Origin: Candidatus Komeilibacteria bacterium
GTDB taxonomy: Bacteria > Patescibacteriota > Patescibacteriia > UBA1558
DNA: 64,000 nucleotides
Direction of reading: 5' to 3'
NCBI GenBank assembly: GCA_048538275.1
Contig: JBLYPW010000002.1
Coordinates: forward strand, 103,927 to 167,926
This document shows positions 6,574 through 62,264 of this stretch, in pieces (within the stretch, counting starts at the first letter, position 1; every line of letters starts with the position of its first letter). A program made the translations under genes and the position numbers. A model generated the notes under the pieces. It worked only from the letters and a program-made list of their open reading frames with translations, did no database searches and was not told the origin of the DNA.

Positions 6574-6586
6574 TTTGATAAAAATA

Positions 6587-7156: not shown

Positions 7157-7272
7157 TGAATCCCTCCAATCTGTTAAAGAGCCTTTAATTTATTCCTCCA
7201 TTTTTTCTTATTTATATTATAGCGTAATATAAAAATTATTACTAATAGTGAGTAGTTATTTTTGTGGAAAAA

Positions 7273-8199
7273 CTATTTAATACTGGCAATGACTTTTTGT
7301 AGAAGCTTGGCAGATTTTTGTAATTGTTGTTTTTCCTGATTATTGAGTATGGGAGTCACAGTGTTGATTATGCCTTCACAACCCACTACTCGGGGCATGC
7401 TCAGACAAATATTTTTTATACCGTATTCTCCTTGCAGACGGTGAGAAAGCGGCAAAACCGTGTGTTCATCAAATAAAATAGCTTTGATTAAAGCTGTGGT
7501 CCCGGCGCCGATTGCATAATAAGTCGCTTGTTTTCCAGCGATAATGGCATAAGCAGCATTGCGGGCGGACTGGAATATTTTCTTTTTATCAATTGCAGGT
7601 ATTTTATGGTATTTATCTACTGGGGTATTGCCAATTGTAGCGGTACTCCAAATAGGGAATTCACTATCACCGTGTTCGCCGGCAATATAGGCATGCACGC
7701 TGCGTGGATTGACATTTAAATATTGGCCCAGCAACCAGCGAAAACGAGCAGAGTCAAGTAATGTTCCGGTACCCATAATTTGGTTGGCTTTTTTGGGGTA
7801 CATTTGGATAGCTAGATCGGTTAATATGTCTACGGGGTTAGTTACGATCACCAAAGTTATTTTGGCATTAGCACGGAATATTTTAGGTAAGATTTTTTTA
7901 AGAATAGCAGCGTTTTTTTTCACTAGACTTAAACGGCTTTCACCTGGTTTTTGATTAGCGCCACAAGCTATTATTGCTACGTCGCTATCTTTTATATCAT
8001 TATAATCACCGACTTTAACACGGCTATATCCTAAGAAAGGTAAGGCATGTTGTAAGTCCATTACCTGGGCTGTGACCAGCTCTTTATTTATATCAATAAG
8101 CGCTATTTCTTCCGGCAAATTAGCGGCTAGTAAGCTATAGGCAATGGTACTGCCGACAAAGCCGGCGCCAATGATAGTAACTTTATTTTGCGTATTCAT
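7273..8199 (-). CDS. ldh: L-lactate dehydrogenase
   Basis: IIGAGFVGST Rossmann; GEHGDSEF substrate motif; IVTNPVD. Confidence 0.85.
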   Translation of the reverse strand: MNTQNKVTIIGAGFVGSTIAYSLLAANLPEEIALIDINKELVTAQVMDLQHALPFLGYSRVKVGDYNDIKDSDVAIIACGANQKPGESRLSLVKKNAAILKKILPKIFRANAKITLVIVTNPVDILTDLAIQMYPKKANQIMGTGTLLDSARFRWLLGQYLNVNPRSVHAYIAGEHGDSEFPIWSTATIGNTPVDKYHKIPAIDKKKIFQSARNAAYAIIAGKQATYYAIGAGTTALIKAILFDEHTVLPLSHRLQGEYGIKNICLSMPRVVGCEGIINTVTPILNNQEKQQLQKSAKLLQKVIASIK

Positions 8200-8313
8200 A
8201 GGTTTAACTTGCTTTATTATTTATTAATTGTTTATATTATAAGCTATTGAGTTGATTTTAGATAGGGAGGGCTTTGACGAAGTGAGTAAAAAACATTATA
8301 ATTAAGCTATATT

Positions 8314-26992: not shown

Positions 26993-28370
26993 ACATAAGC
27001 TTAAGCCAAATGATATTACTTTCTTAAATGAAAGTGATGTTTTATATTCTTTGGATTTTAGAGTATTGAGTGAAAATATAGACTATAAGATACCAACTAT
27101 GTGGAAATATGAAAATATATTACCATGGATACTTTCTGGTAGAAATGTTGTTGTTAATGAAAATTATACTGCCTTAGAGTATCCAAATAAAAATTCATTT
27201 GTTGTTACAAAGAAAACAAAAGATCCAAGAGTATCAATCTATGAAAGAATGTCAAAAGGATTAATGGGGGATAATATAAAAAAATTATGGGTAGCTGTGC
27301 CACATCCTGATGCTGATATTTTTTGTAAGGAAAATAAATTAAAAATTAACTATAATTATGATTCTTATCTCAAGTATAATAATAAAATCGAGCAAAAGAA
27401 ATTACTAGGTAATGCGAGCCCTAATTGGAAACTTATTTCGTCCTTTGATGAAATTAAAGGATTACAAAAAAAATATACAACAGGTTATATTAAGAGAAAG
27501 TTTGGATCGGGTGGCTATACGGTTTTTGAATTAAATAAATTGGATCATAATTTTTCTAAATTATTTAAAGAGTCATCAAATGAATGGTATTTTGAAGAGG
27601 AGGTTAAAGGAAAGGCTTATAGTATTCAATGCGTTAAGGATGGTAAAAATGTAACAGTTTTTGGATTCTCAGAACAAATTATTGAAGGACATAAGTTTTA
27701 TTCTGGTTCTAAGATTTTATCTCTTGATTTACTTAATATAAAGCTTTTTAACCAAGTTAAAAAAGCTTTAAGTAGATTTGGTGAATTTTTAGCTGACTAT
27801 AATGGTTTATTTGGCTTAGATTTTATTATTGATAAAAATAATAAAGTTTTTATTTTAGAGGCAAATATTAGGATAACTGCAGTGACAATTTCTACTTTAT
27901 TATTTAATATGGTGGGTGCAGAATCAGCTCTATTTAGGGAAGATGTAAAGAATGATAATATGGCTAAAGATGATGTGGTTCTCACATGCGAAGTTGACAA
28001 TATGAAGGACGTCCTTAGTTTTAATTCAGTTAAAGGTGTTTTAGGAATGAGCATCTATGTAGATTTTAAAAATTGCTTAGTCAACGTAAAAAGAATGGAT
28101 GATAAAGTTGCTAGAGAAATATCTGAAATTGTTAATATGATAATTAGCAATGTAGAAAAGATAGACTATCATAATTTTTGGCCGTACGGTTGGACATTGT
28201 CATTAATACTATCTAATTCACATTGCGTTATGAGTAGTTGGTATTTAGAGAAAAGAGTCTTGGTTGATGTTTTTAGTTGTAATTTAGATTATGATCAGAA
28301 ACTATTTATTAAGAAAATGTCTGATTATTTTAAGTCTAAAAATAATAAATTTAAAGTAGAATTAAGATAA
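26982..28370 (+). CDS. ATP-grasp family ligase
   Basis: C-terminal ATP-grasp signature GLFGLDFIID...NKVFILEANIR; start overlaps the upstream gene by 11 nt. Confidence 0.65.
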   Translation: MITKHKLKPNDITFLNESDVLYSLDFRVLSENIDYKIPTMWKYENILPWILSGRNVVVNENYTALEYPNKNSFVVTKKTKDPRVSIYERMSKGLMGDNIKKLWVAVPHPDADIFCKENKLKINYNYDSYLKYNNKIEQKKLLGNASPNWKLISSFDEIKGLQKKYTTGYIKRKFGSGGYTVFELNKLDHNFSKLFKESSNEWYFEEEVKGKAYSIQCVKDGKNVTVFGFSEQIIEGHKFYSGSKILSLDLLNIKLFNQVKKALSRFGEFLADYNGLFGLDFIIDKNNKVFILEANIRITAVTISTLLFNMVGAESALFREDVKNDNMAKDDVVLTCEVDNMKDVLSFNSVKGVLGMSIYVDFKNCLVNVKRMDDKVAREISEIVNMIISNVEKIDYHNFWPYGWTLSLILSNSHCVMSSWYLEKRVLVDVFSCNLDYDQKLFIKKMSDYFKSKNNKFKVELR

Positions 28371-28375
28371 ATAGT

Positions 28376-29407
28376 TTGGAAATGAATAATTATATTGTAA
28401 TTCCGCCTTATTATAAGGGTACTGCATTTCAGGAGATTGTAATACATATGCTTGTTGCGGTAAAAAAAACAAAGTACAATATAAAATTTATCGGTCTACT
28501 AGAACCAATAGATAATACCTTATCAGGGTTTTTGTTGGATGATGAGATTTATACCAAGTATCAATCTTTTTTAATTTCTGATTTAATGAATTTGAAGACA
28601 CCTGCTAAAATATTATTTTTGGATTTTTTTAATTTAGGTTTCGATTTATTACGATATTTACATGAACAAACTAATGCGAATGTTAAATATGGATCGTTAA
28701 TTCATGGAGGGTCATTTTTTGATGAAGACATATATAATATGCCGTGGTTGAGTAACTTTGAGAATGCGTGGGCAGATTTATATGATACGATGTATATAGC
28801 TTCAAATTATGGTAAGAATAGACTTCCGGATAGTTTCAAAGATAAGGTTAAAGTTATTCCTTGGGGGATGGATGGGTTTAGAAGTGAAGCATCAGTTAAT
28901 AAAATTAATGATGTTATTTTTCCACATAGATTGAGCCCAGATAAGGGGGTTGAGGATTTTATAATGATTGTTGACTCTTTGCCGCAAGTAAAGTTCATCG
29001 TGACTGTGCCTCAAAAAAAGAGTGTAATTAGCAAAAATAAATATTATAATGTCCTAAAAAAATATACTAATGTAAAATTTATTTTCAATGAGAGTATGGA
29101 AAATCACAATATAACATTATCCTCTGCAAGAGTAGTTTTGAGTTGTGCTAAACAAGAAATTTTTGGCTACTCTATTGCTAAGTCTGTTGCGTCAGGGTGT
29201 ATCCCAGTATTACCAAAAGATCAATGTTATCCAGAATTTTATCAAAGGAAATATTTATACAAGAATATACAAGATGCTATTTCTATGATAGAGGATGTTA
29301 TTATTGAGTCGAAAAGTAATACTTTATCAAATGAGGGCAATAGTAAATGTATTTATGATTTTGAAACATTTTCATTTAAGAACCATTTTGATGATTTTTT
29401 TGGTTAA
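28376..29407 (+). CDS. glycosyltransferase group 1 (GT4-like)
   Basis: C-terminal E-x7-E-like region QEIFGYSIAKSVASGCIPV; FPHRLSPDKG. Confidence 0.6.
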   Translation: MEMNNYIVIPPYYKGTAFQEIVIHMLVAVKKTKYNIKFIGLLEPIDNTLSGFLLDDEIYTKYQSFLISDLMNLKTPAKILFLDFFNLGFDLLRYLHEQTNANVKYGSLIHGGSFFDEDIYNMPWLSNFENAWADLYDTMYIASNYGKNRLPDSFKDKVKVIPWGMDGFRSEASVNKINDVIFPHRLSPDKGVEDFIMIVDSLPQVKFIVTVPQKKSVISKNKYYNVLKKYTNVKFIFNESMENHNITLSSARVVLSCAKQEIFGYSIAKSVASGCIPVLPKDQCYPEFYQRKYLYKNIQDAISMIEDVIIESKSNTLSNEGNSKCIYDFETFSFKNHFDDFFG

Positions 29408-30624: not shown

Positions 30625-30704
30625 GCATAATGTTTGAAGACGATGTCAGTTTGGCGTCGTCTTTTCATTTGAGTTTCAGCCTGTTATTTTGTTATAATAC
30701 AACT

Positions 30705-31286
30705 ATGAAATTAAAAGATACTGTACAGCATAGCACTAAAAAAGAAATTCTTTTACGTTTTTTGATTATGTTTGGCGTGCTGTTAGTATATTTTGTTTTT
30801 TTGTCTTGGCAATACGGTATGGCCACGGGTGGTTGGGTAGCCATATTGACTTGGAGTTTTTTTGTTTTGTGCACGCCAATTGCTGATGCTGGTTTTTTAT
30901 TGGATTTTCCTTTGCGTTTATTATTTAATATCAAGATGGTTTTTAGTGAGGTTATTGTTTGGGTTATAGCTATTGTCGTCAATGTGATTGCCGTTCAGTT
31001 TAGTCCCGATATTTATGGCAAAACAGTTTTGACTAGCATATTTTATCAAATTTTAACTAATTTAAATCCTTATGGCCTCATTATCTTATTAGCTACCGCT
31101 GGTACTTTTTTATCAGTCAGGTTTGGGGATGAATTAATGGATGTTATGTACCATCATGAGCGCGCTATATTTCATAGACACGGTCTGTGGGTAAGGATAT
31201 TGGGTTTTGTTACCATTTTTGTTTTAACTGTCATTATATATAATATTTTGATTCAGCAATTTGGTTTAACCGAGTTTATTCAATAG
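30705..31286 (+). CDS. hypothetical integral membrane protein
   Basis: several hydrophobic helices; start placed at MKLKDTV after a TATAAT box. Confidence 0.45.
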   Translation: MKLKDTVQHSTKKEILLRFLIMFGVLLVYFVFLSWQYGMATGGWVAILTWSFFVLCTPIADAGFLLDFPLRLLFNIKMVFSEVIVWVIAIVVNVIAVQFSPDIYGKTVLTSIFYQILTNLNPYGLIILLATAGTFLSVRFGDELMDVMYHHERAIFHRHGLWVRILGFVTIFVLTVIIYNILIQQFGLTEFIQ

Positions 31287-38735: not shown

Positions 38736-39587
38736 ATGAAAAGAATAAGTATAATAAAAGCAGATGGCAGTAAGCGCGCTTTTAGCTATAAGAAATTATT
38801 ACATTCAGTAGAACGAGCCGGAGCTAATAGAGAAACAGCCAAGCGAGTGGCTAAATCTGTTTTAGCGCAGTTGCCTCGGGAAATAAATACCAATCAGCTT
38901 TATGATTTAATATATAAAGAATTGCGCAGTACGCATAGACCGGCGGCGCAAGTTTATTCTTTACGCCGAGCTTTGGCTGATTTGCCGCCGGAAGTATGGG
39001 AGAAATATATTGCAAAATTGTTTTCTTATTATGGTTATATTACGACATGGAATGTGATAGTGCCGGGCGCTAGCGTAGAACATCAAGTGGATGTTATTGC
39101 AAAACGAGATGATAAAGTTTGGCTGATAGAATGTAAGCATCATTACGATTATCATCGCGACACCGGCTTGGGCGAAATTTTACAGGTACAAGCTAGATTA
39201 GAAGATGTGCAAGATGGGTATAAAATTGGTAAAAATAAATATGGTTTTACGGGTGCTTGGTTAGTAACTAATACAAAATTTTCTAATCATAATAAACGTT
39301 ATGCCGAAGCAAAAAAAATAAATTTAAGCGGTTGGCGTTATCCGGAGAAATATAGTTTAGAGCGCCTGATACAAGATAAGGCAGTTTATCCGCTTACTAT
39401 TCTTTCATTGGATAAGCAGAGTCGTCATTGGTTAATGAATAATAACATTCTTACCTTGCAAGACGTCTTAGCAAATGGCAATAAGATTATAAAAAATTTG
39501 GGTAAAGATAAGGCAGATCGCTTAGCTCGTCAAGTGCAGCATTTGTTGGATTTTGGTACAGAACAATCAGGCTGGACAAGATTGTAG
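38736..39587 (+). CDS. ATP-cone domain fused to an Mrr-like restriction endonuclease domain
   Basis: N-terminal IIKADGSKRAFSYKKLLHSVERAG (ATP-cone); central Mrr_cat-like D...E.K: VEHQVDVIAKRDDKVWLIECKHH. Confidence 0.65.
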   Translation: MKRISIIKADGSKRAFSYKKLLHSVERAGANRETAKRVAKSVLAQLPREINTNQLYDLIYKELRSTHRPAAQVYSLRRALADLPPEVWEKYIAKLFSYYGYITTWNVIVPGASVEHQVDVIAKRDDKVWLIECKHHYDYHRDTGLGEILQVQARLEDVQDGYKIGKNKYGFTGAWLVTNTKFSNHNKRYAEAKKINLSGWRYPEKYSLERLIQDKAVYPLTILSLDKQSRHWLMNNNILTLQDVLANGNKIIKNLGKDKADRLARQVQHLLDFGTEQSGWTRL

Positions 39588-41304: not shown

Positions 41305-42303
41305 CTATATCCTCTTTCTTTTTTTTAGTATAATTTTAGCTGGACAGCTAGAATTTATTTGAGAAGATTTAGAGATTATTTCTAGCAGTGCCAGGTGTTC
41401 ATTATTTAGTAGCTTTAAACTGTTTGTCAAGAGTGATAATATTGCAAGAGCTTTGTTTCGCAGTGTAGATGATGGGTATCTTAGTATATCTGATGAGAGA
41501 ATATCAAATAGTTTAGATTTCTCAGTATTAGGTAGATTTGTAACTAGTGGTATTAGTTGTAATAGTATAATATTTTTCTCTTTTTCTGATCCAGTAGTAA
41601 GATTTTTCAGTAATTTTTTAAATAGTATAGAATCCTTTTTTACCCAGCTCATAGCATATAATTCCTCATAGGTGTAGTTATTTTCATTATCACGATTAAG
41701 TAAATTATTATCTGTATCCTCCATTATCTGGTTGATTTTTTTTTCGATTTTGTATAATTGTCTATTCTGTGAAAATAACATTCCATCAATTTTTATATAT
41801 TTTATATTTACATTTGATTTTTCAAATAGAAGTTCAGATAATTTTTCATGCTTCTTTATAATAGAATTTAGTTTATTATTTTGGTTTGAAGATTGTTTTT
41901 TTGGGCCTATCATTTGAAGTAGTTTAGGATTTTTGGTTATATCTATATTGATTACAGTATGTCCCTTATCTGGATAATAAGGATTCATTGTAGAACACAC
42001 AATCCAATTATTCTTTTCTAATTCATGAATTATTTTTTTTATAATAAATCTAAATTCTTTTGTGTTATATTTATTACCTAAATAGTATCCAACAATTTTT
42101 GGATTGTTTTCTAAAATAGGTAGAGATGATCCGCTATATGACCACAATTCAATGTCTTTGAGAGTGTATTTCATGCAATTATTATAACATAAATTGGGCT
42201 TATTTATATAATTATAACCTTGGTGAGTGTTCACGTAGAAAATAGGGTATTTTAGAACCATTTTTTTGTAAGATTTATATTTATTACAATCTATTCTTGA
42301 CAA
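41305..42303 (-). CDS. hypothetical protein (AT-rich orphan, 332 aa)
   Basis: long ORF with strongly AT-biased codons; no recognisable motif. Confidence 0.45.
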   Translation of the reverse strand: MSRIDCNKYKSYKKMVLKYPIFYVNTHQGYNYINKPNLCYNNCMKYTLKDIELWSYSGSSLPILENNPKIVGYYLGNKYNTKEFRFIIKKIIHELEKNNWIVCSTMNPYYPDKGHTVINIDITKNPKLLQMIGPKKQSSNQNNKLNSIIKKHEKLSELLFEKSNVNIKYIKIDGMLFSQNRQLYKIEKKINQIMEDTDNNLLNRDNENNYTYEELYAMSWVKKDSILFKKLLKNLTTGSEKEKNIILLQLIPLVTNLPNTEKSKLFDILSSDILRYPSSTLRNKALAILSLLTNSLKLLNNEHLALLEIISKSSQINSSCPAKIILKKRKRI

Positions 42304-49535: not shown

Positions 49536-50471
49536 TTAGAGCCACTTTTTATGTTTGAAGTAGAAGAACATGACTATGGTGCCTAAAAACATTATGCCGA
49601 TTACATACCAAAAGTCATATGAGCTTTTCATAAAAGGCATGGCGGTTGTTGTGTTCATGCCAAAAATGGCTGCTAGCAAAGTTAAAGGAAAGACAATAAC
49701 AGAAAAAATGGTCAAAGTTTTCATAATGTCATTAAGGCGAAAAGATATTAAAGATTCATTAGTACTGCGCAGCGCCTCAATTGTTTCTTTCTGATTATTT
49801 AAGATATCCCAGATATCTTTAGTTTGTTCTAGAATATTGGCATAATAGCTGTCTATGCTGGAGGGTATAAAGTACTTGGTATTTTTGGCTATGAGTTTGC
49901 GGATAACATTTTTATGTGCTTGCATGATTTTTCTGAAGTTTACAATATTGCGTTTAATGATCAATATTTCTTTGACCATTTCTTTTTCAAAGCCTTTAAA
50001 TATGCCTTGCTCCAAAAAATTTATGTCATCGTTTATGTGATCAAGCATGGGAAAGCAATATTCTTGCAAGCGATTGAGCACTTCATAAAGTAATTTGGTG
50101 GGGTTGCCGTCCATATAGCGTTGTCGCATAGTATCGTTTAGCTGGCATTGTTCAAATAATTTTTCTATGGGTGGTAAACCATCCTTATTGATTGTGATCA
50201 AAAACTCTGGACCAATAAAGAAGTTTACTTCACCAGAAATTATTTCTTTGTCATTTCTTACATAAATAGGGAAAGTAAGAATCATGAAAATATAATCATT
50301 GTATTCATCTAGCTTGGGTCGTTGGCTAGGAGAGAGACAGTCATCAATATCCAAGGGATGAAAATTATAATTTTCCCTTAGGTATTCAGCTTCATCAGCG
50401 CCAAACTCGGTAAAGTTTAGCCAAGTTATACGACGTGTTTTTATTTTTTTCATAGCATCTAACATGTTCAA
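49536..50471 (-). CDS. corA: CorA-family Mg2+/Co2+ transporter
   Basis: C-terminal two TM helices with FGMNT (GMN motif). Confidence 0.8.
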   Translation of the reverse strand: MNMLDAMKKIKTRRITWLNFTEFGADEAEYLRENYNFHPLDIDDCLSPSQRPKLDEYNDYIFMILTFPIYVRNDKEIISGEVNFFIGPEFLITINKDGLPPIEKLFEQCQLNDTMRQRYMDGNPTKLLYEVLNRLQEYCFPMLDHINDDINFLEQGIFKGFEKEMVKEILIIKRNIVNFRKIMQAHKNVIRKLIAKNTKYFIPSSIDSYYANILEQTKDIWDILNNQKETIEALRSTNESLISFRLNDIMKTLTIFSVIVFPLTLLAAIFGMNTTTAMPFMKSSYDFWYVIGIMFLGTIVMFFYFKHKKWL

Positions 50472-50549
50472 ATTATAACATAAAATAATAGCTTCGTGAA
50501 CCTAGCCCTTATTATATCTTAAAGATTAGACAATTTTATGTTATAATTT
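50470..50549 (+). promoter_or_regulatory. 15-bp inverted repeat pair (AAATTATAACATAAA / TTTATGTTATAATTT) in a divergent promoter region
   Basis: exact reverse complements at 50470-50484 and 50535-50549. Confidence 0.45.
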
Positions 50550-50553
50550 AGCC

Positions 50554-51027
50554 ATGGAAACAAAAGCAAAAGGTATGGAAAAAATGCCAACTTCACCAAC
50601 AGAGCAATCGGGTGATAAAGTAGAGAAAGAGGTGACGGTAGACGAGGTTTTGGGTAAGACCGCTGAACACATTAATCAGTCGGCGGCTTCATTACCAGCT
50701 AATCTTCCGGTGGATGATCAATCACCAAAGACTATGGCGTCGGCTAAGCCCCTGGCTATTGTAGAAATAGAAGATATTTTGTCTGACGGTTTGGGCGAGT
50801 TTTATCAACAATTGAGCGTATCGGAAAAAGAGAATTTTAGAGTGAGTGGTGAAAAAACTGCCGTAGAGATAGACAGTCTTTTACAACAGGCAAAAGTTAA
50901 AATTAAGGAGATTATTAACCTTATTCGTGGATGGCTTCAGTCGGTGCCGGGATTAAATAAATTTTTTGTTGAACAATCAGCTAAAATTAAAGCTGATAAG
51001 ATTTTGATTAAAAGAGGACGACGTTAA
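50554..51027 (+). CDS. hypothetical protein
   Basis: 157-aa ORF directly upstream of the large ATPase. Confidence 0.45.
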   Translation: METKAKGMEKMPTSPTEQSGDKVEKEVTVDEVLGKTAEHINQSAASLPANLPVDDQSPKTMASAKPLAIVEIEDILSDGLGEFYQQLSVSEKENFRVSGEKTAVEIDSLLQQAKVKIKEIINLIRGWLQSVPGLNKFFVEQSAKIKADKILIKRGRR

Positions 51028-51041
51028 TATTATTTCAATTT

Positions 51042-53591
51042 ATGCTTGATCCCAATTATACACAGGCAGTGGTTACGACCAGTCAAATAGGGTGGTTTAT
51101 TTTTGTGACAGCGCTATTGCTATTCATAGTAGTTGTTTTTTGGTGGTGGCGTCGTCATTTACGCCTGCATCATATTGTGCCGTCTGAGTGGAAGCATGAT
51201 GTTTTAGAATTAACAGTTCCAAAGTTAAGGAGAAAAGATGGCCAGGATGAAAAGGTTGATAATACTCATGAGTTGGTTTCTTTGGCGGAAAATCTTTTTT
51301 CTACAGTAGGTGGTCTACAAGTGCAAAGCGGTTGGCAGGCTTGGTTGTATGGTCGTCAGGATACATTTGCTTTTGAGATAGTTGTCCAGGGAGGAATTAT
51401 TTATTTTTATGTATCTGTGCCACGGACAAACCGTGAATTTTTGGAACAGCAACTCAATTCCATATATCCGCATATTAATATAATGCCAGTAGAGGATTAT
51501 AATATTTTTCAGCCAAAAGGCGAGGTGGCGGCTGCCGCTATGCAATTGCAGAGAGAATATATTTTTCCCATCAAAACTTATAAACAGTTGGAAAATGATC
51601 CTTTAGGCATTATTACTAGCAGTCTTAGTAAAATTACAGATAAAGAGGGAGCGGCGGTGCAATTGGTTTTGCGTTCTTCACATCGGCGTTGGCATCGGCG
51701 GGGAACAGAGGTGGCTTCTTTGGTGCAACAGGGTAAAAGCATTTCCGAAGCTATGAAAAATGTTGGTTTTGGCTCTTGGTTTGGTAAATTGCTGGATATT
51801 ATTATAAATCTTATTAAGAGCGCTGGTAGTGGTCAGGAAAATAAAACCCCAGAGCCAGCTCATCAACTGACGCCTCAAGAGCAGGAGATGATTAAAGGGA
51901 TAGAACAGAAAAGCTCCAAAGCCGGTTTGGATGCTAATTTGCGAGTAGTTGTGTCGGCTCAGAATCAAGCCTTAGCGCAACAAAAATTGAATGATATCAT
52001 ACACGCTTATTCGCAATTTAATATTTATCAATATGGTAATGGTTTTAAGGCTTGGCAGCCACGGCGTCAAGCGAAGAAGGATAGTTTGATAGAGGATTTT
52101 ATTTATCGTAACTATGTTCAGTCAAGAGCTATGGTATTGAACACCGAAGAGGTCGTCAGTCTTTGGCATTTACCATTACCGACCAATGAAACACCCAATA
52201 TTAAGTGGCTAAAGGCCAGACAAGCAGCCCCGCCAGTTGATTTACCAACTGATGGGCTATTGTTAGGCATGAGCAAATATCGTGGCGTAGAACGGGAGGT
52301 TCGTATTCGTCGTTCGGATCGGCGTCGTCATATTTATGTCATCGGACAAACCGGTACTGGTAAATCCACTTTCTTAAAACATATGACGGCACAAGACATT
52401 GCTAATGGTGAAGGCTGTTGCGTGATAGATCCGCACGGTGATTTTGCTATTGATATGTTGGCTCAAATACCGCCGGAAAGAGCGGATGATGTGATTTATT
52501 TTAACCCCTTTGATGTTGAAAGGCCCTTGGCGCTTAATATGTTAGAACATAATACTCCGGAGCAGAAAACATTTGTTGTGAATGAATTGCTCTCTATTTT
52601 TGATAAATTATATGATTTAAAATCCACTGGTGGTCCTATGTTTGAAATGTATATGCGCAATGCCTTGCTTTTGATTATGGATGATCCGCAATCGGGTATG
52701 ACCTTGATGGAAGTACCAAGAATTTTGGCGGATCAAGAATTTCGTAATTATAAGCTAAATAAGTGCAAAACTCAGTCGGTGATTGATTTTTGGCGTAAAG
52801 AAGCGGAAAAGGCCGGAGGCGAAGCGGCGCTGGCTAATATTGTGCCTTATATTACCAGTAAGTTAACACCATTTATTGCCAATGATATTATGCGCCCAAT
52901 TATCGCTCAGCAGAAGAGTAGTTTTGATTTTCGTGATATCATGGACAATAAGAAAATTTTGATTTGTAATTTGAGTAAAGGAAAGCTGGGGGAGATTAAT
53001 AGTAATTTATTGGGCATGGTAGTCGTTGGTAAGATTTTATTAGCTGCCTTGTCGCGGGTTGACTTGGGGGAGCAAGAGCGATCGGATTTTTATATGTATA
53101 TAGATGAGTTTCAGAATTTTACCACCGATAGCATTGCCATTATATTGTCGGAAGCACGTAAGTATCGTTTGAATCTAAACATTGCTCATCAATATATTGG
53201 TCAGCTGGTCAAACATAATGACACCACTATTCGCGATGCGGTATTTGGTAATGTTGGTACGACCGTGGCCTTCCGCATTGGTGTGGATGACGCGGAAACT
53301 ATTACTAAACAGTTTGCGCCGGTATTTGATGAATACGATGTAGTCAATGTTCCTGCCAGGACCGCTTATATAAAGTTGATGGTAGACAATGCTAATCCGC
53401 CCGCCTTTAGTATTTCTACAATCCGTGAGCCGCAAGGCGATAAAAAAATTGCAGCCAAAGTAATAGAGTTATCTCGTCAAAAATATGGTCGTCCACGCGC
53501 CGATATAGAAAAAGAAATTTTACAGCGTAGTCAAAATGCGGGTCAGCCAGATTGGCTAGATCAATCACAAAATTCACCCACGGGGGATTAG
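51042..53591 (+). CDS. membrane-anchored P-loop ATPase, VirB4/TraD(TraG/VirD4)-like (AAA_10/DUF87-type)
   Basis: N-terminal TM; Walker A IGQTGTGKST around residue 440; Walker B MYIDEFQNF; 849 aa. Confidence 0.6.
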   Translation: MLDPNYTQAVVTTSQIGWFIFVTALLLFIVVVFWWWRRHLRLHHIVPSEWKHDVLELTVPKLRRKDGQDEKVDNTHELVSLAENLFSTVGGLQVQSGWQAWLYGRQDTFAFEIVVQGGIIYFYVSVPRTNREFLEQQLNSIYPHINIMPVEDYNIFQPKGEVAAAAMQLQREYIFPIKTYKQLENDPLGIITSSLSKITDKEGAAVQLVLRSSHRRWHRRGTEVASLVQQGKSISEAMKNVGFGSWFGKLLDIIINLIKSAGSGQENKTPEPAHQLTPQEQEMIKGIEQKSSKAGLDANLRVVVSAQNQALAQQKLNDIIHAYSQFNIYQYGNGFKAWQPRRQAKKDSLIEDFIYRNYVQSRAMVLNTEEVVSLWHLPLPTNETPNIKWLKARQAAPPVDLPTDGLLLGMSKYRGVEREVRIRRSDRRRHIYVIGQTGTGKSTFLKHMTAQDIANGEGCCVIDPHGDFAIDMLAQIPPERADDVIYFNPFDVERPLALNMLEHNTPEQKTFVVNELLSIFDKLYDLKSTGGPMFEMYMRNALLLIMDDPQSGMTLMEVPRILADQEFRNYKLNKCKTQSVIDFWRKEAEKAGGEAALANIVPYITSKLTPFIANDIMRPIIAQQKSSFDFRDIMDNKKILICNLSKGKLGEINSNLLGMVVVGKILLAALSRVDLGEQERSDFYMYIDEFQNFTTDSIAIILSEARKYRLNLNIAHQYIGQLVKHNDTTIRDAVFGNVGTTVAFRIGVDDAETITKQFAPVFDEYDVVNVPARTAYIKLMVDNANPPAFSISTIREPQGDKKIAAKVIELSRQKYGRPRADIEKEILQRSQNAGQPDWLDQSQNSPTGD

Positions 53592-53828
53592 TTGTGTAAA
53601 AGTTTGGGGTTCAATTGTGTGCAAGTGAATAAAATCGGCTAGCTAATTTGAATTTCTAAAGAGTAGTGGGATAAAATGGTAAAAATAGGCAATTTTTTGT
53701 GCCTTTTTTTATATAATTTTTTTGCTATAATATGAGTGCAAAATAAAAAGTTAGTATAAAAAGGGAAAAAATAAAAATAAAAAGTTAGGATTTTAAAATA
53801 AAAATCTAAAAAAATAAAAAATAAATTT

Positions 53829-54410
53829 ATGGACGAAGAAGAAAAAAAACAAAATCAATCCCCAGAAGTAGATGCGGAAGCATTGAGCGGTATCCAATTA
53901 ACGCTAGGTAAGATTGAGGAAGAATTGCAAAAAGTAAAATTAGAATTGGCCAAATCTGGTTTGGTGTCTGGCAAGAGTCAGGATTTTTCTGGTAAGCTAA
54001 AGGATCTCCAGATAACTGAAGATGATAATGAACAAATAGTAGAGGGTGTTTTTGATGGCCAACAAATGATAGGTCCCGACGGTAAGCAGTATTCTATTCC
54101 TGCCAATTATATTTCTAAATCAAAGTTGGTGGAAGGAGATATCTTGAAACTGAAAATAATGCCGGACGGGTCTTTTATTTATAAACAAATCGGACCGGTG
54201 GCACGTGAGCGGCGGGTAGGCAATCTGATAAAGGATGATCAGGGTGATTTTGCTGTAATGGTAGGTCAGCGTATGTATAAAGTGATTTTGGCGGCGGTTA
54301 CTTATTTTCATGGTAGTGAGGGCGATGAGGCTGTAATTCTTTTACCCAAGGATACGGAAAGTAAGTGGGCAGCCATTGAGAATGTTATAAAAAGCTCTAG
54401 TCCCCTGTAA
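53829..54410 (+). CDS. hypothetical protein (coiled-coil N-terminus)
   Basis: 193-aa ORF after a long A-rich spacer. Confidence 0.45.
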   Translation: MDEEEKKQNQSPEVDAEALSGIQLTLGKIEEELQKVKLELAKSGLVSGKSQDFSGKLKDLQITEDDNEQIVEGVFDGQQMIGPDGKQYSIPANYISKSKLVEGDILKLKIMPDGSFIYKQIGPVARERRVGNLIKDDQGDFAVMVGQRMYKVILAAVTYFHGSEGDEAVILLPKDTESKWAAIENVIKSSSPL

Positions 54411-54424: not shown

Positions 54425-54457
54425 CGTCCCTCAGAGATTCTCTGAGGGCGTTTTTAT
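54425..54457 (+). terminator. intrinsic terminator
   Basis: cgtccctcagag-att-ctctgagggcg followed by T5. Confidence 0.7.
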
Positions 54458-56332: not shown

Positions 56333-57265
56333 ATGAACAATAAAGCTGTAATAATTTTAACCATCATTTCAATTTCATTATCACTGTTATTACTGTTTTT
56401 TTTATTAATAGGCATATATTGGTTTAAACGTGGAGATGCTTGTTTAACACAACCACCATATTTAAATTGTCATACCCAAAATAAGTTTGAGGAAATAGAT
56501 GCTGAATTTAATAATTTATCAGGACAAATATTAAGCCTAAATGAACCATCTATTTTTAGTATTGATAAAAATGAAGGCGTTTTTTCTTTTGACCATATAG
56601 GCGAAGATACTGATTTTGGAGTAGGCTGGACTAGGATAATGCAAAATGAAGAGATTAAAGATTCTTTAGGTTTTTACACATACTATATAGATCCTATTCT
56701 TACACCTTTAACAAAAGATACTTTGATTGGATCAGCTTGGCAATACCCACAAGATTCAAAACTATATAATGGACCATTTATTAATTATTATTTAGATTTT
56801 AAAACCAGAAAAACAGTTGAATTGCCGACTAAAGGCAGGATTATTTCCAAATCTCAAGATGGACAAAAAGTGGTTTTTCTGGAAAGCGCTTGCGACAAGG
56901 AACATATACCCGAACCAACAGCGGATTGCAATAATTTAGATTTGAGTTTGAGGATTATTGATCTAACGTCAGATTTAAATGGTATGATGATTAATCATTA
57001 TTACGCGATGAACCATTGGACAGACCAGGGACCACCCTATGTTAATTTTTTGGATTTTGGCAAACTTGTATTCTCACCCGACGGAAATAGGCTGGCAATG
57101 GAAATTAAAATTGAACAAATTGACTATGACACCCCGAGTGAATATTGGACTCTATTTATCGCTGATACTAAGACAGGAGAAATTATCAAACAGAACAACA
57201 GATTATCCAAGAGTGGATATGAATATATGTTTTGGTCAGATAATGAAAATGTGATTTATTGGTAA
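56333..57265 (+). CDS. hypothetical secreted/membrane-anchored protein (AT-rich)
   Basis: N-terminal TM; no recognisable motif. Confidence 0.45.
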   Translation: MNNKAVIILTIISISLSLLLLFFLLIGIYWFKRGDACLTQPPYLNCHTQNKFEEIDAEFNNLSGQILSLNEPSIFSIDKNEGVFSFDHIGEDTDFGVGWTRIMQNEEIKDSLGFYTYYIDPILTPLTKDTLIGSAWQYPQDSKLYNGPFINYYLDFKTRKTVELPTKGRIISKSQDGQKVVFLESACDKEHIPEPTADCNNLDLSLRIIDLTSDLNGMMINHYYAMNHWTDQGPPYVNFLDFGKLVFSPDGNRLAMEIKIEQIDYDTPSEYWTLFIADTKTGEIIKQNNRLSKSGYEYMFWSDNENVIYW

Positions 57266-57269
57266 ATTA

Positions 57270-57914
57270 ATGAAAAAGATAATAACTACTTTAATTATTC
57301 TAATTGTTATTTTATTGTTTTTTGTTTTTGCAATAAATATTCATATAAACAAAATTGGTAGTAATATGTGTGATTTGGATAATATAAATCAACAAGCCGC
57401 TTTAGTTTTGGGTGCTAAAGTTTGGAATAATGGTAACTTGAGCGATATTTTTAAAGATAGGATTAATACAGCTATTGATTTGTATAATAAGGGAGAAGTA
57501 GAAAAAATTTTAGTTAGCGGCGATCATGGTCAAACGGATTATGACGAAGTAAATACCGCTAAAGAGTATCTGTTAGACAATGGGGTAAGGTTAGAAGATA
57601 TTTTTTTAGATCATGCTGGGTTTGATACTTATGATAGTCTTTATCGCGCTCGAGATGTTTTTAAAGCCGAATCATTGGTTGTAGTTACACAAAACTTTCA
57701 TCTACCGCGAGCTTTATATATAAGTAACAAGTTAGGCTTGGATTCTTGTGGTGTAAGTGCTGATTTACATAAGTATTTAGGTGAAACCACTAGGAATAGA
57801 AGAGAAATTTTGGCAAAAGTAAAAGCTTGGTTAAATATTATTTTTAATTCAACCCCCAAATATTTAGGAGATAAAATTCCCTTGTCTGGTAGCGGTTTTA
57901 ATAGTTGGGATTAA
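57270..57914 (+). CDS. DUF218 (SanA/YdcF/ElyC-like) domain protein
   Basis: N-terminal TM; ALVLGAKVWNNG...ILVSGDHG pattern. Confidence 0.6.
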   Translation: MKKIITTLIILIVILLFFVFAINIHINKIGSNMCDLDNINQQAALVLGAKVWNNGNLSDIFKDRINTAIDLYNKGEVEKILVSGDHGQTDYDEVNTAKEYLLDNGVRLEDIFLDHAGFDTYDSLYRARDVFKAESLVVVTQNFHLPRALYISNKLGLDSCGVSADLHKYLGETTRNRREILAKVKAWLNIIFNSTPKYLGDKIPLSGSGFNSWD

Positions 57915-57926
57915 TGAAATGATTAT

Positions 57927-60065
57927 ATGAAAAAAATTTATTTGATTTCACTCATAACAATCGTAGTAGGTTTAATATTTTATACACTACCTCATTGGTT
58001 TAGTTTTTTGTGGGGTTTTCAACTTTTATTATTGCCCATGTTAGCTGGTGTGTTGATGGTATTAGTTCAGAATGAAGATAGGACTTATAGGTTTTTACCA
58101 AAACTTATTACTGGGTCATTGATAGCAAGTTTTGTTTATTTAATTTTATTGCAAGTAATCGAATATGATCATGATGGTTATTTTGTTTTTTTTGGTTTTT
58201 TAATGCCAGCATTATTTTTAACAGGTGTTAGTATATTCGGTGGTTTAGTAGGAATTGTTATTAAAGGTACCGCTTTGTTATTGAATATAAAATCCGAATC
58301 GAAATTTATTTTAATAGTTAAGAAAATATTTGGAGGATTATTTTTAAGTATAGATTCGATTTTAACATTGATAGCTATTGTATTTTTTTTGATAGTAGCG
58401 TTTTATCCTTCAAGCTCTTGGCTCAACATGGTTATGGTTGATTTTAGAGTAATAGATGTAGTTGGATTTTTTAATTATTATTTGTTGCTTATCTCTGTAT
58501 TATTTATTTTTACAACACCGTTGATATTTGTCACTAATTTAGGTTTAATTTTACTGTTTCCTCTAAAAAGATATTTGAATAAAAAATTATCTTCTCGTTT
58601 AATCATTTATTTTTTTATCTTTTTAGCCGTTTTTCTTTTATCGTCTTCTTATTTGAATTCTAAATTTGAATTAAAGAAAGCAGAAATGAAAAAAAATAAT
58701 ACTAAAGAACATTTTGATATTAAAGATTTTAACAAAATAAATGTTTCGCGTTTTGTTGAATTTGATGAGATAAAAATTATTCAAGGCGATAAATTTGATA
58801 TAGTGGTTAAGGGTAGTCAATATGACCAAATAGGACTTGATATTGAAAAAAACGATGATAAAACATTAGTAATAAAAAGATCAGAGCTTGAAACGTATTA
58901 TAATACTGAAACTTGGACAATGGAGAATGAAGATTCTTTGTTTCCTGCTGGTACTAAGCATTTGGTTATAGAAATAATTATGCCCGATATTGAAAAGATT
59001 GTTTTAGATGGAGGTCATATAGAACTGGTAGATTTTGATGTTGATAATGTTGACATCGAACTCAATAAGCGATTTACTGATATCAAAGGTAATATCATAG
59101 TTGAAGACACATTAAAACTAGATGCTAAAGGAGGCGTAATTAATTTGTCTGGTTCGGCTAAAAATTTAATCATAAATTCAGGCGACTGTTGGATTGAAAT
59201 GGATAAATTTATAGTTCAAGATGCCATTATTGATGCAGTAAATACCAGCAGATTGAATGTGAATGTAAGTAATAATATGGAAATAGAAATAAACAAAAAT
59301 TCTGGTATCACAAATCATAATAATAGTGAAGTTTGGGATTCAGAAATTCAGGAGCTAGCGTTTAAACTCAAATCAAGTATTTCTGGTATAAATATCAGTT
59401 TTCCGAAGGATTCATCTCTTTGGTGGAATGATGAGGATGGCTATAGTATTTTAGTTCCTGGAAACGAATCAATTGAAGTTGTTGGGGATGATGGTGTTAG
59501 GTCTGATAATTTTGCTGAAAGTAGTTTTGTCGCTGAGTTGTTGGATATTACTAAACAAGTGTTATCTACTAGGGGATTTATTTTAAATGAGAGTAATTCA
59601 TCTGCAAATATAATGGATAAGAAGTTTTATGACTATGTTCGAGCATATAAAAATGATGATAAGTTGTGTGTAGTTAGGGTTAATCCTGATTATAGCTCTT
59701 ATGGTTGTACTGATAATATGTTGATGTGTAATGTGGTAGAGATAACCTGTGGTAATGATTTAGCTGGAAGCCAGGTTCAACAAAGACCGTTTTTAGAAGC
59801 ACTTGAACTGCAAAACAAAGAAACAATTGTACAAATCATAAAACAAATTGGAGATTTTTATAAAGTTGCTATTAGCTATCGTCGTACTGGTTCAACAGGA
59901 GTTGTTAAAAAAGAGGATGGTGGTTTACGACTTTTATATACGAGTCAAGAAGATCCACATTGTGAAATAGTAGAAACAGAACGTATTCCAAGTAATGTAC
60001 TTGAGGGTTTTGAAATAAATGGCTGTTGGACTGAAAATGGGTATAGAAAATTTAGTGGAAATTAA
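57927..60065 (+). CDS. large hypothetical membrane protein (multi-TM N-terminus, about 470-aa extracytoplasmic C-terminal domain)
   Basis: 712-aa ORF, very AT-rich; about 8 hydrophobic helices in the first 240 aa. Confidence 0.5.
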   Translation: MKKIYLISLITIVVGLIFYTLPHWFSFLWGFQLLLLPMLAGVLMVLVQNEDRTYRFLPKLITGSLIASFVYLILLQVIEYDHDGYFVFFGFLMPALFLTGVSIFGGLVGIVIKGTALLLNIKSESKFILIVKKIFGGLFLSIDSILTLIAIVFFLIVAFYPSSSWLNMVMVDFRVIDVVGFFNYYLLLISVLFIFTTPLIFVTNLGLILLFPLKRYLNKKLSSRLIIYFFIFLAVFLLSSSYLNSKFELKKAEMKKNNTKEHFDIKDFNKINVSRFVEFDEIKIIQGDKFDIVVKGSQYDQIGLDIEKNDDKTLVIKRSELETYYNTETWTMENEDSLFPAGTKHLVIEIIMPDIEKIVLDGGHIELVDFDVDNVDIELNKRFTDIKGNIIVEDTLKLDAKGGVINLSGSAKNLIINSGDCWIEMDKFIVQDAIIDAVNTSRLNVNVSNNMEIEINKNSGITNHNNSEVWDSEIQELAFKLKSSISGINISFPKDSSLWWNDEDGYSILVPGNESIEVVGDDGVRSDNFAESSFVAELLDITKQVLSTRGFILNESNSSANIMDKKFYDYVRAYKNDDKLCVVRVNPDYSSYGCTDNMLMCNVVEITCGNDLAGSQVQQRPFLEALELQNKETIVQIIKQIGDFYKVAISYRRTGSTGVVKKEDGGLRLLYTSQEDPHCEIVETERIPSNVLEGFEINGCWTENGYRKFSGN

Positions 60066-60162
60066 TTTAAATTGTATCCAAGTTTAGTAAAATGGAGAAT
60101 GGCTGTTATTCTAGAGACTTGATTACAGTTCGAATGTTAGCCTTGAAGAGTTTAACAAAAGA

Positions 60163-60192
60163 GTTCTAAAGTTGTCCCGGTATGCGAGCCAA
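60163..60192 (+). repeat. 30-bp direct repeat copy 1 (GTTCTAAAGTTGTCCCGGTATGCGAGCCAA)
   Basis: identical copy at 61449-61478; the two copies flank the Fic gene. Confidence 0.85.
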
Positions 60193-60213
60193 TTTTTTAA
60201 GGGATTTTTAGCA

Positions 60214-60335
60214 GATAATTGCAGATTGCAGCGATTGAGGTTATAGTAATGCAGCAATAAATTGTTGTTTTTATTACTAAATTTGATGATTTATATATAT
60301 TATGCAGCAATAACGTATTTGAAATGCAGCAATTA
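60214..60335 (+). promoter_or_regulatory. array of TGCAGCAAT-type repeats upstream of the Fic gene (candidate operator array)
   Basis: ATGCAGCAATAA at 60249-60260 and 60302-60313; ATGCAGCAATTA at 60324-60335; TTGCAGATTGCAGCGATTG at 60219-60237. Confidence 0.5.
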
Positions 60336-60352
60336 AGTGCTATAATAAAAGC

Positions 60353-61399
60353 ATGAATAAGAGGCAAAAAAGACAACAAAAAATAATTACTTTTATAAAG
60401 AGTAAAGATAAGGTATCTAACTCTGAAATTTTAGATTTCCTTGGTGGTACAATTGAAAGAACGACATTGCAAAGAGATTTAAATTCTTTACAAAAACAAG
60501 GTTTTATTCTGAAAACTGGGCTTGGTCGGAGTACAGTTTATACCATTGCAGATATAAATAGAATATCCTTACCAGTTGATATTAAAGAATATTTCAATAT
60601 CCCATATTTGAATAGAGATATAAAAGAGACTTTCAATTTTGATATATTTAATATTTTGAATGACGATATTTTTACAGTAGAAGAAAAAGATAAGTTAGAG
60701 AAGCTACAGGCAGATTTCGTTAAAAATTTTTCCAAATATGATAGTCAAACGATTATTAATAAGGAGTTTGAGAGAATAATGATTGAATTTTCTTGGAAGT
60801 CGTCGGTTATTGAAGGAAACACATATTCACTTTTAGGTACCGAAGCTTTGATAAAAAATAATATTATTGGAAAAGGTAAGACTGAAAAAGAAACCCAGAT
60901 GATCATTAATCATAAGGACGCTTTTAACGAGGCAATTCAAAATAAAAATAAATTTATAAAATTACATTCTTCCAGTATTGAATATATTCATTCAGTTTTG
61001 ATTAAGAAATTAGGAATTTCTAAGAATATAAGAAATGAAGGTGTTGGAATTACTGGTACAAAATATAGACCCCTGGATAATAGTTATCAAATTAATGAGG
61101 CAATGCAGAAAATGATAGACTTGATTAATAAGAAAGAATCGTTTTTTGAAAAAGCTTTTTTAGTATTGATTTTTATTTCCTATATTCAGATTTTTGAGGA
61201 TGGGAATAAAAGAACTTCTCGCATGATTTCTAATGCTATTTTATTAGCACACAACTCAATACCACTTTCTTATAGAATTGTTGATGTTGAGGAATACAAA
61301 AAAGCTGTCATACTATTTTATGAAATAAATAATATTTCTTATTTTAAACAAATATTTATTGAGCAGTTTGAAGATGCGGTTAATAATTATTTTAGGTAG
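60353..61399 (+). CDS. Fic/DOC-family protein with N-terminal winged-HTH and a degenerate core motif (QIFEDGNKR instead of HPFx[DE]GNGR)
   Basis: ...YIQIFEDGNKRTSRMISNAILL aligns to the Fic motif with H to Q and G to K substitutions. Confidence 0.65.
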   Translation: MNKRQKRQQKIITFIKSKDKVSNSEILDFLGGTIERTTLQRDLNSLQKQGFILKTGLGRSTVYTIADINRISLPVDIKEYFNIPYLNRDIKETFNFDIFNILNDDIFTVEEKDKLEKLQADFVKNFSKYDSQTIINKEFERIMIEFSWKSSVIEGNTYSLLGTEALIKNNIIGKGKTEKETQMIINHKDAFNEAIQNKNKFIKLHSSSIEYIHSVLIKKLGISKNIRNEGVGITGTKYRPLDNSYQINEAMQKMIDLINKKESFFEKAFLVLIFISYIQIFEDGNKRTSRMISNAILLAHNSIPLSYRIVDVEEYKKAVILFYEINNISYFKQIFIEQFEDAVNNYFR

Positions 61400-61448
61400 T
61401 ATTTTTTATAAGAACATTGCCATCTAATTGTTGTTTGTGGTTAAAAAA

Positions 61449-61478
61449 GTTCTAAAGTTGTCCCGGTATGCGAGCCAA
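61449..61478 (+). repeat. 30-bp direct repeat copy 2
   Basis: identical to 60163-60192. Confidence 0.85.
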
Positions 61479-61547
61479 AAGACCATTCATGATAATAAGT
61501 GGTTTTTTTGTTTTGACTTTTATTTAAGAACATAAGATAATAAGACC

Positions 61548-62264
61548 ATGGATATAATTTTATTAGATACAGAAACCACCGGTATTGATCAAGACGCGCG
61601 ATTAGTACAGTTGGCTTATAAAAATTTGAGTAGCGGTAAATCTGTAAATGAATTTTTCAAGCCGCCGATACCTATTTCTATTAAGGCTCAGGCTACGCAT
61701 CATATTACAGAGCGAGAGGTAGCCGATAAGCCAGCCTTTATCAATAGTGATTGGCAAAAACAATTGATCCAAGAGCTAGCAGATAATATCATGGTGGCAC
61801 ATAATGCGCCTTATGACATTCGTATTCTCAACAATGAAAAAGTAGCGGTCAATAAATTTATAGACACACTGCGTGTCTCTCGGCATTTATTGGAGAGTGA
61901 AGAGTATAATATGCAGTATTTACGCTATGCTTTAGATCTTAATGTTACTGCTTTGGCGCACAATGCCATGGGGGATGTAGCTGTCTTGGAGGCATTGTTT
62001 AATTATTTGTGTAATTTTATTAAAGCAAAGCATACGGTGGCGAGCGACGCAGAGGTTTATGATCTGATGCTGCATTTGACCGAACAGCCGGTTTTATTGC
62101 GAGTGATGAATTTTGGCAAGCACAAGGGTAAGTTTTTTAAAGACGTGGCCGAGTATGATATAAACTATCTGCAATGGTTGTATGATAAACAAATGGAGAA
62201 TGACATGCTTGGTCGCAATGAGGACCTTATTCATACTTTGGAGCAGTATTTGGGGATCAAATAG
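61548..62264 (+). CDS. DEDDh 3'-5' exonuclease (DnaQ-like) domain protein
   Basis: ILLDTETTG (Exo I); HNAPYDIRIL (Exo II); HNAMGDVAVL (Exo III with His). Confidence 0.75.
   Translation: MDIILLDTETTGIDQDARLVQLAYKNLSSGKSVNEFFKPPIPISIKAQATHHITEREVADKPAFINSDWQKQLIQELADNIMVAHNAPYDIRILNNEKVAVNKFIDTLRVSRHLLESEEYNMQYLRYALDLNVTALAHNAMGDVAVLEALFNYLCNFIKAKHTVASDAEVYDLMLHLTEQPVLLRVMNFGKHKGKFFKDVAEYDINYLQWLYDKQMENDMLGRNEDLIHTLEQYLGIK

Follow-up and report, generated by a model that had tools for sequence, protein, structure and literature searches.

The locus described here raises two questions: what kind of motor is encoded by the gene of an 849-aa membrane-anchored ATPase in a metagenome-assembled genome of Candidatus Komeilibacteria, and how this gene and its neighbors are transcribed. 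Patescibacteria, the group to which this genome belongs, make up a large share of bacterial diversity. The gene lies in a 64-kb stretch of contig JBLYPW010000002.1 (hereafter the window), in which the open reading frames (ORFs) of the locus and corA were re-examined at the coordinates of the initial annotation. The evidence supports placing the ATPase in the VirB4/VirD4 branch of the FtsK-HerA superfamily, which comprises the ATPases of type IV secretion systems (T4SS). The protein is built like VirB4: a membrane anchor is followed by a VirB4-type N-terminal domain (NTD; DUF8128) and then by the motor. Its gene forms a two-gene operon with the gene of a small protein, p157, with a leaderless extended -10 promoter in front; in Patescibacteria it is a chromosomal gene beside dnaX, inherited vertically and under strong constraint. 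What the sequence data show, namely the family assignment, the architecture, the intact catalytic motifs, the structure of the operon, the synteny and the promoter arrangement, is probably as described below. The initial annotation gave ORFs of 157, 849 and 193 aa on the forward strand with corA divergent, and the coordinates agree:

49536-50471, reverse strand: corA as the mechanical ORF, divergent from the p157-ATPase pair
50554-51027, forward strand: ORF of p157, small partner protein, 157 aa
51042-53591, forward strand: ORF of the membrane-anchored ATPase, 849 aa, DUF8128 plus coupling-protein-like family, with phrog_5156 relatives
53829-54410, forward strand: ORF of p193, 193 aa

Within the ATPase the following segments could be distinguished, including the N-terminal transmembrane (TM) helix and the Walker A and Walker B motifs already claimed for it, all of which were located:

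51087-51149, forward strand: single N-terminal TM helix, aa 16-36, a hydrophobic segment with RRHLRLHH next to it
51195-52241, forward strand: N-terminal domain, aa 52-400, Pfam DUF8128 (PF26449), fold like the VirB4 NTD
52254-53441, forward strand: P-loop motor domain, aa 405-800
52344-52370, forward strand: Walker A GQTGTGKST, aa 435-443
52428-52442, forward strand: DPHGD motif
52557-52877, forward strand: helical insert in the motor
53097-53120, forward strand: Walker B YIDEFQNF, aa 686-693
53151-53192, forward strand: ARKY...HQ

The catalytic residues are invariant in all 25 homologues in which the Walker A/B and ARK/HQ motifs were compared. The predicted topology is a short outside tail, one TM helix and a cytoplasmic NTD and motor, since the basic RRHLRLHH follows the helix and places the rest of the protein in the cytoplasm by the positive-inside rule. 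Judged from its sequence signatures, such as DPHGD, the motor is a VirB4/VirD4-type P-loop domain nearest to type IV coupling proteins (T4CP).

This family assignment follows from several searches. The Pfam models TrwB_AAD_bind (36.6 bits; cutoff 20.5), T4SS-DNA_transf (25.8 bits; cutoff 20.1) and TraG-D_C (27.4 bits; cutoff 22) are exceeded. The best NCBIfam matches are TraD/VirD4-like models with E values of 2e-12 to 1e-9, SXT_TraD being the best (46.4 bits vs a cutoff of 366) and CD1115 scoring 40.5 vs 250. Among PDB sequences TrwB (E 2.5e-5) and DotL match best, and the NCBIfam model CedD, an archaeal DNA-import ATPase, gives a weak match (E 1.3e-6). In the profile check proposed by the initial annotation, T4SS-DNA_transf and TraG-D_C thus lie above their cutoffs, while AAA_10 and FtsK_SpoIIIE give no qualifying match to the 849-aa protein: FtsK_SpoIIIE does not exceed its gathering score, and neither CagE_TrbE_VirB nor AAA_10 appears in Pfam at E <= 0.1. 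The VirB4/TraD-like assignment of the initial annotation is therefore borne out by coupling-protein models above cutoff and by an NTD with the VirB4-NTD fold, and a housekeeping ATPase family does not take the best profile matches.

The VirB4 character of the NTD is visible in structure. In the PDB Foldseek search all 11 matches with E <= 1e-3 are TrwK/VirB4 chains. Sequence comparisons give little of this kind: the NCBIfam model VirB4_plasma scores 20.8 bits vs a cutoff of 590, PDB entry 4ag5 is matched at E 0.57, the NTD profile matches no PDB sequence, and CagE_TrbE_VirB is not found in Pfam at E <= 10 for 15 N-terminal domains. A link between the NTD and VirB4 at the sequence level was thus ruled out by the empty PDB-sequence and Pfam searches, and the link is structural.

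The family itself is already known and annotated, and it is uncharacterized. PF26449 (DUF8128) is precomputed on the identical NCBI protein P0001 and on all top matches; a literature search on the name DUF8128 found no paper. There are more than 5,800 homologues, and the 120 best matches listed, with 51-65% identity across their full length, represent several groups of the candidate phyla radiation (CPR); a profile search with the NTD only returned 3,968 cluster representatives. Some family members (P0226, P0231, P0230, P0209, P0222, P0201) reach 1,045-2,006 aa through very long C-terminal extensions. Inteins were suspected in these long members and rejected: Pfam gives the same NTD and motor, with C-terminal tails that have no Pfam match.

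The setting of the gene was compared across 80 related Patescibacteria loci of different CPR classes, chosen by ATPase similarity. A p157 homologue stands directly upstream of the ATPase gene in 70 of the 80 loci, dnaX stands downstream in 66, and a p193 homologue lies between the ATPase gene and dnaX in 50; cysS is nearby in 33 and a divergent corA is present in 24. Called-gene contexts on two long contigs from the relatives P0004 and P0053 (L081 and L082) show the same backbone, hrcA-grpE-dnaK-dnaJ ... cysS-(corA) / p15x-ATPase-p19x-dnaX. Median identity to the window protein in the same loci is 50.6% for the ATPase, 47.2% for CysRS, 46.1% for DnaJ, 43.5% for CorA and 39.8% for DnaX. The GC content and GC skew at the locus run on unbroken into the flanks, and Rfam and tRNA scans of 50.4-54.5 kb gave no match. 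GC skew is positive in every 2-kb bin of the window (1-64000), and about 85% of its genes lie on the forward strand; the whole window therefore belongs to one replichore, with genes co-oriented with replication.

A Pfam screen of about 47 ORFs of the window, among them those of the locus itself (four) and the 40 largest of the rest, gave no T4SS, pilus or competence component, only housekeeping and metabolic families, and no secretion genes were called within 10 kb on either side of the ATPase gene in L081 and L082. A VirB3/VirB6/VirB8/pilin cluster near the ATPase is likewise absent from the ORFs screened and from these flanks. In Patescibacteria the gene is not part of a mobile element or of a T4SS cluster.

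These data bear on the reading of the protein as a canonical coupling protein (VirD4/TraD) of a conjugative or integrative element, which would recruit relaxase-bound DNA to a T4SS channel. The Pfam scores given above agree with such a protein. Against it stand the lack of a relaxase, VirB4, VirB6/8 or integrase among the window ORFs screened, the housekeeping position repeated in 80 loci of different CPR classes, a single TM helix plus a 350-aa VirB4-like domain where a two-TM stub is usual, the NCBIfam equivalog score of 46 vs 366 bits, and the rarity of relaxases in the phylum, with 109 in the dataset of a published survey (Quinonero-Coronel et al. 2025, PMC12102498). This reading is therefore very improbable. 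The same survey counts 5,713 VirD4-type (T4CP) homologues across 2,918 Patescibacteria genomes, places virB4 close by for 148 of them only, and proposes exaptation (PMC12102498). The window gene is almost certainly one of those 5,713 matches, and its conserved solitary setting agrees with the finding that they mostly lie far from virB4 (PMC12102498).

A defense function, as ATPase of an anti-phage system of the HerA/DptH/MADS type, is least credible. Matches to such systems exist, and they span the generic motor domain only; no nuclease, Sir2 or other effector is adjacent; the fixed position and the presence at every related Patescibacteria locus examined differ from patchy defense islands; and phages themselves carry homologues. 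The FtsK, HerA and defense-ATPase readings were dropped on scores and gene context, and the rivals (plasmid coupling protein, FtsK-like pump, defense ATPase) are less likely than membership in the T4SS ATPase branch on the same two grounds.

The two genes of the operon are tightly spaced. The gap between p157 and the ATPase gene is 14 nt in the window and contains no terminator; in related loci its median is 4 nt, it does not exceed 20 nt in 63 of 69, and in 16 loci the genes overlap by 4 nt. These short gaps and overlaps indicate translational coupling, and the co-transcription of the 157-aa gene with the ATPase gene asserted earlier is upheld here and in the relatives. The N-terminal half of p157 is acidic, proline-rich and variable, and its C-terminal ~85 aa are conserved and helical (WLxxIPGVNKFFLEQEAKIKADKI). 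It has no TM segment, and searches against Pfam, NCBIfam, PHROG and PADLOC gave no consistent match. In one metagenome-assembled genome (L069, 3694-6726) no stop codon separates the p157 homologue from the ATPase, and the two share a single 1,010-aa reading frame, which is either a natural fusion or the result of a lost stop codon or an assembly error. It weighs little for an interaction, because it comes from a single such genome and the fused part would precede a TM helix with its N-terminus outside.

Downstream of the ATPase gene three further elements were found:

53687-53704, forward strand: terminator-like hairpin with T-run 3' of the ATPase gene
53723-53731, forward strand: TGCTATAAT, candidate promoter of the 193-aa gene
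54428-54448, forward strand: strong intrinsic terminator in the p193/dnaX gap, a 9-bp stem with 6 GC pairs

The ATPase-p193 spacer is 237 nt long and AT-rich. Since it holds the hairpin and p193's own TGCTATAAT, p193 is probably a separate transcription unit, not co-transcribed with the ATPase gene; it is an optional unit next to the p157-ATPase pair. Its C-terminal 120 aa are highly conserved (median identity 56%). Weak AbrB/MazE-like Pfam matches occur in 10 of 50 members; an AbrB/MazE-like DNA binder was rejected on hhalign probabilities of 1.7% (AbrB) and 0.1% (MazE).

The second question concerns the divergent corA/p157 region. The two exact 15-nt inverted repeats about 50 bp apart that had been seen there are real (50470-50484 and 50535-50549, with 50 nt between). 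Their exact identity reaches 17 nt (50470-50486 and 50533-50549), and the arms extend to 24 nt at 88% complementarity, which includes both start codons. Both arms prove to be extended -10 elements (TGnTATAAT), and in each of them exactly 6 nt separate the hexamer from a start codon:

50463-50486, reverse strand: leaderless corA promoter, left arm; TGTTATAAT as reverse complement of 50472-50480, 6 nt, ATG at 50465-50463
50533-50556, forward strand: p157-ATPase promoter, right arm; TGTTATAAT at 50539-50547, 6 nt, ATG at 50554

Read toward its gene, each arm consists of ATTTTATGTTATAATTT, followed by the last 3-4 nt of the 6-nt spacer and then the ATG. The same arrangement is met elsewhere. There are ten TGnTATAAT sites in the window, and five of them lie exactly 6 nt 5' of the ATG of an ORF of at least 157 aa (30705 forward, 42174 reverse, 50465 reverse, 50554 forward and 60353 forward). 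Three of these five belong to unrelated genes other than corA and p157:

30690-30707, forward strand: TGnTATAAT-6 nt-ATG promoter
42174-42193, reverse strand: TGnTATAAT-6 nt-ATG promoter
60338-60355, forward strand: TGnTATAAT-6 nt-ATG promoter

Over the 69 predicted genes of the window, -10-like hexamers show a sharp peak at the 6-nt spacing, with 7 genes vs 1-3 at adjacent spacings, and a Shine-Dalgarno-like 4-mer precedes only 5 genes. An extended -10 element exactly 6 nt 5' of the ATG is thus a recurrent promoter type in the window, implying leaderless mRNAs; the literature searched gave no relevant description of leaderless transcripts in Patescibacteria. In most related loci the ATG of the p157 homologue is again preceded by TGnTAtAAT and 6-7 nt. 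Because the left-arm -10 element sits 6 nt before it, the ATG at 50465 is more likely to be the corA start than the TTG at 50471. The mechanical starts TTG 42303 and ATG 30630 are, like TTG 50471, probably too far upstream; the likely true starts, next to the promoters, are ATG 42174 (289-aa protein) and ATG 30705 (193-aa protein).

The initial annotation took the repeat for a palindromic operator, on which one regulator binding both arms would co-regulate corA and the ATPase operon. This claim is not sustained. The repeat reflects two -10 promoters for leaderless transcripts that face away from each other and is not an operator, because the arms are -10 boxes, the motif recurs at unrelated genes, an outcome that the initial annotation had itself named as a refutation, and no longer dyad is present in relatives. 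Each arm is placed as a -10 box 6 nt from its ATG; the arms are 46-50 nt apart and form no compact dyad; and TTTATGTTATAAT is also found 5' of the unrelated gene at 42174 on the reverse strand. The exact 15-mer has no further copy in the window, and with up to 3 mismatches it is over-represented there, with 40 matches vs 19 +/- 4 in shuffles. In 20 related loci with divergent corA, nearly all intergenic regions contain one -10 box per orientation; outside the -10 consensus there is no conservation between the two boxes or between genomes, so that in most of these relatives the boxes are unlike each other, and no longer conserved dyad was found, the -10 boxes only. A point on the side of an operator is that the exact arm identity of 17 nt is greater than the 9-bp -10 consensus alone predicts, going some 8-9 positions beyond what TGnTATAAT requires; in addition, the closest relative L081 also has identical arms, the 11-nt TGGTATAATAT. 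Since the 17-nt identity exceeds the 9-nt consensus, a slight chance is retained for an additional shared regulator. In the annotation of such genomes divergent pairs of extended -10 promoters should not be taken for operators.

The initial annotation suggested that the ATPase could power the uptake or transfer of DNA or the secretion of effectors. What the ATPase does can be proposed by analogy with VirB4/TrwB. It would act as an ATP-driven hexameric ring at the cytoplasmic face of the membrane, with p157 as a co-translated soluble subunit or adaptor that could assist the ring, and the ring would move a macromolecule, by pushing or pulling, through a channel in the membrane whose genes lie elsewhere. 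The cargo would most plausibly be nucleic acid, given the class of motor, the link with dnaX and the presence of phage copies among genes of DNA metabolism. Oligomeric state, substrate, transport direction and channel partner are the inferred parts of this model, and nucleic-acid translocation by the ATPase is a possibility that is more doubtful than probable.

Several observations weigh against the overall reading of the locus given here. Genes for a channel, a pilin, a relaxase or competence are absent from the window ORFs screened and from the 10 kb on either side of the ATPase gene in L081 and L082. The resemblance of the NTD to VirB4 is structural only, at 8% identity, with no CagE_TrbE_VirB or PDB-sequence match. 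The comparison of conservation is biased, because the loci were picked by ATPase similarity. The T4CP homologue of Southlakia ML1 is reported as non-essential for epibiotic growth (PMC12102498), which argues against an indispensable role if that T4CP is an orthologue.

A more specific form of translocation would be the import of host DNA or RNA together with ComEC, type IV pili or a T4SS-like pilus, feeding a cell auxotrophic for nucleotides. The motor class translocates DNA (TrwB), the weak CedD match points the same way, and members of the family are found widely in Patescibacteria, for which an absence of de novo nucleotide synthesis has been reported (PMC12857230); the route by which Patescibacteria take up host nucleic acids, including the mechanism of host RNA uptake, is explicitly described as unresolved (bioRxiv 10.64898/2026.06.21.733656). 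On the other hand, comEC, pil or T4SS genes are not linked to the ATPase gene among the window ORFs screened, comEC deletion had no effect on the viability of Southlakia (PMC12857230), and no nuclease or nucleic-acid-binding domain was recognized in p157 or p193. An import motor is considered rather unlikely.

The ATPase could also be a chromosome-handling DNA pump of the FtsK/SpoIIIE type, which clears or segregates DNA at division and whose linkage to dnaX would thereby be explained. Its place directly upstream of dnaX in 66 of the 80 loci, the membrane-anchored ring-ATPase type, the phage homologues among recombination and replication genes and a conservation like that of core genes are in favor of such a pump. 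The FtsK_SpoIIIE result given above speaks on the other side; TM7x has its own annotated ftsK. A segregation pump is held to be improbable.

Relatives outside Patescibacteria extend the comparison. The NTD also matches haloarchaeal plasmids, two Bacillales megaplasmids and Bacillus phages. The window ATPase matches phrog_5156, annotated as of unknown function, with a PHROG E value of 4e-79 over aa 102-836, and the 856-aa 'ATPase domain protein' of phage YungSlug is collinear with it (BLASTP E 6e-28, aa 70-827). A phrog_5156 protein is encoded by about 109 phages, most of them Bacillus or Geobacillus phages, examples being YungSlug, SP-10, SPO1-like phages and TP-84 gp48. The following loci were inspected, the last of which encodes a stand-alone protein:

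L085, YungSlug, 4366-8418: phage locus
L086, 000TH010, 4593-7421: phage locus
L087, Geobacillus TP-84, 4345-6884: phage locus
L083, Halobacterium noricense plasmid, 7863-9026: stand-alone DUF8128/VirB4-NTD-like protein, 387 aa, hhalign probability 98%

In 000TH010 and TP-84 the ATPase gene is situated between lysis-side or early genes and recombination/replication genes. The adjacent upstream gene in 000TH010 encodes a small membrane protein with hydrophobic segments consistent with two TM helices, and in YungSlug the ATPase gene follows two 'membrane protein' genes and a gene for a peptidoglycan hydrolase. This arrangement recalls VirB3 (and VirB1) beside VirB4 and looks like a minimal VirB3/VirB1/VirB4-like module. 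A 'transfer complex protein' gene is located within a few kb of the gene of the 387-aa Halobacterium plasmid protein, and this stand-alone haloarchaeal protein may be an archaeal counterpart of TrsD-like proteins.

The widest proposal is that DUF8128 ATPases form a deep, hitherto unrecognized third lineage among T4SS-type motors, a living intermediate that combines a VirB4 NTD with a coupling-protein-like motor and so stands between VirB4 and VirD4. Patescibacteria would have domesticated them from the phage and plasmid pool; together with p157 they would serve as an essential, stand-alone translocase of nucleic acid, by which the cell feeds on or exchanges that of its host. Taken as a whole this proposal is speculative and unlikely. 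The abundant 'orphan coupling proteins' of Patescibacteria have so far been counted and not explained, and the locus offers handles on macromolecule acquisition: the VirB4 architecture with its small partner p157, an ATPase conserved at least as well as DnaX or CysRS, and full-length relatives in genetically tractable Bacillus phages.

Some other features of the window were recorded. A thymidylate cluster at 966-4477 comprises dCMP deaminase, a P-loop kinase-like protein, an unscreened 140-aa ORF, ThyA, DHFR and Tmk; from this cluster it follows that the organism interconverts pyrimidine nucleotides rather than builds them, which bears on a nucleic-acid-scavenging lifestyle. Two stretches have a low GC content (28-33% vs ~38-40% elsewhere). 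The first, at 25109-29407, encodes a GT2 + BpsA_C fusion, an ATP-grasp + AdoMet decarboxylase fusion and a GT1 protein; the second, at 56333-62264, encodes a 310-aa protein, a DUF218 protein, a 712-aa multi-TM protein with a DUF2807 adhesin-head domain and a Fic protein. Either stretch may represent an island for surface modification or for interaction with a host. At 38736-39587 an ATP-cone, an Mrr-type restriction endonuclease and an AF1548-like C-terminal domain are joined in an unusual fusion.

Among known systems, VirB4 was represented by TrwK of R388, the C-terminal domain (CTD) of Thermoanaerobacter VirB4 and the PDB entries 7o42, 7o43, 8rtd and 4ag5. The two-domain plan of VirB4, an NTD of ~400 aa followed by a RecA-like P-loop CTD, is present in the window protein. 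VirB4 associates with the membrane by VirB3 or by a fused TM segment, and here a fused helix is predicted at aa 16-36. In contrast to VirB4, the window protein has no sequence match to VirB4 profiles, and its gene occupies a conserved chromosomal site in the 80 related loci instead of lying among VirB3/VirB6/VirB8/pilin genes.

With the type IV coupling proteins (TrwB, VirD4, TraD, DotL and Cag-beta were the comparators) the ATPase shares a motor that passes the Pfam gathering scores. It differs from them in the 350-aa VirB4-like domain between anchor and motor, in one TM helix instead of a two-TM stub directly before the nucleotide-binding domain, in missing the NCBIfam equivalog cutoffs 5-8-fold, and in the lack of a relaxase or T4SS neighborhood. 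The survey PMC12102498 treats its Patescibacteria homologues as coupling proteins, and its available part is silent on the VirB4-like NTD, the p157 partner, the dnaX-linked site and the phage relatives.

FtsK/SpoIIIE and HerA belong to the same ring-translocase superfamily, and FtsK is membrane-anchored too; a motor profile above threshold, a multi-TM N-terminus and a gamma domain, by which FtsK/SpoIIIE would be recognized, are not seen in the window protein. The phage phrog_5156 proteins have the same NTD, motor and C-terminal helices, with a small gene directly upstream. They are ~21% identical to the window ATPase, their genes are found in early/recombination regions of phage genomes, and those examined have no fused TM helix, unlike the window ATPase, with small membrane-protein genes upstream instead. 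The window protein is a member of the DUF8128-ATPase family, which combines PF26449 with a T4CP-like motor in proteins of ~800-880 aa and includes phrog_5156.

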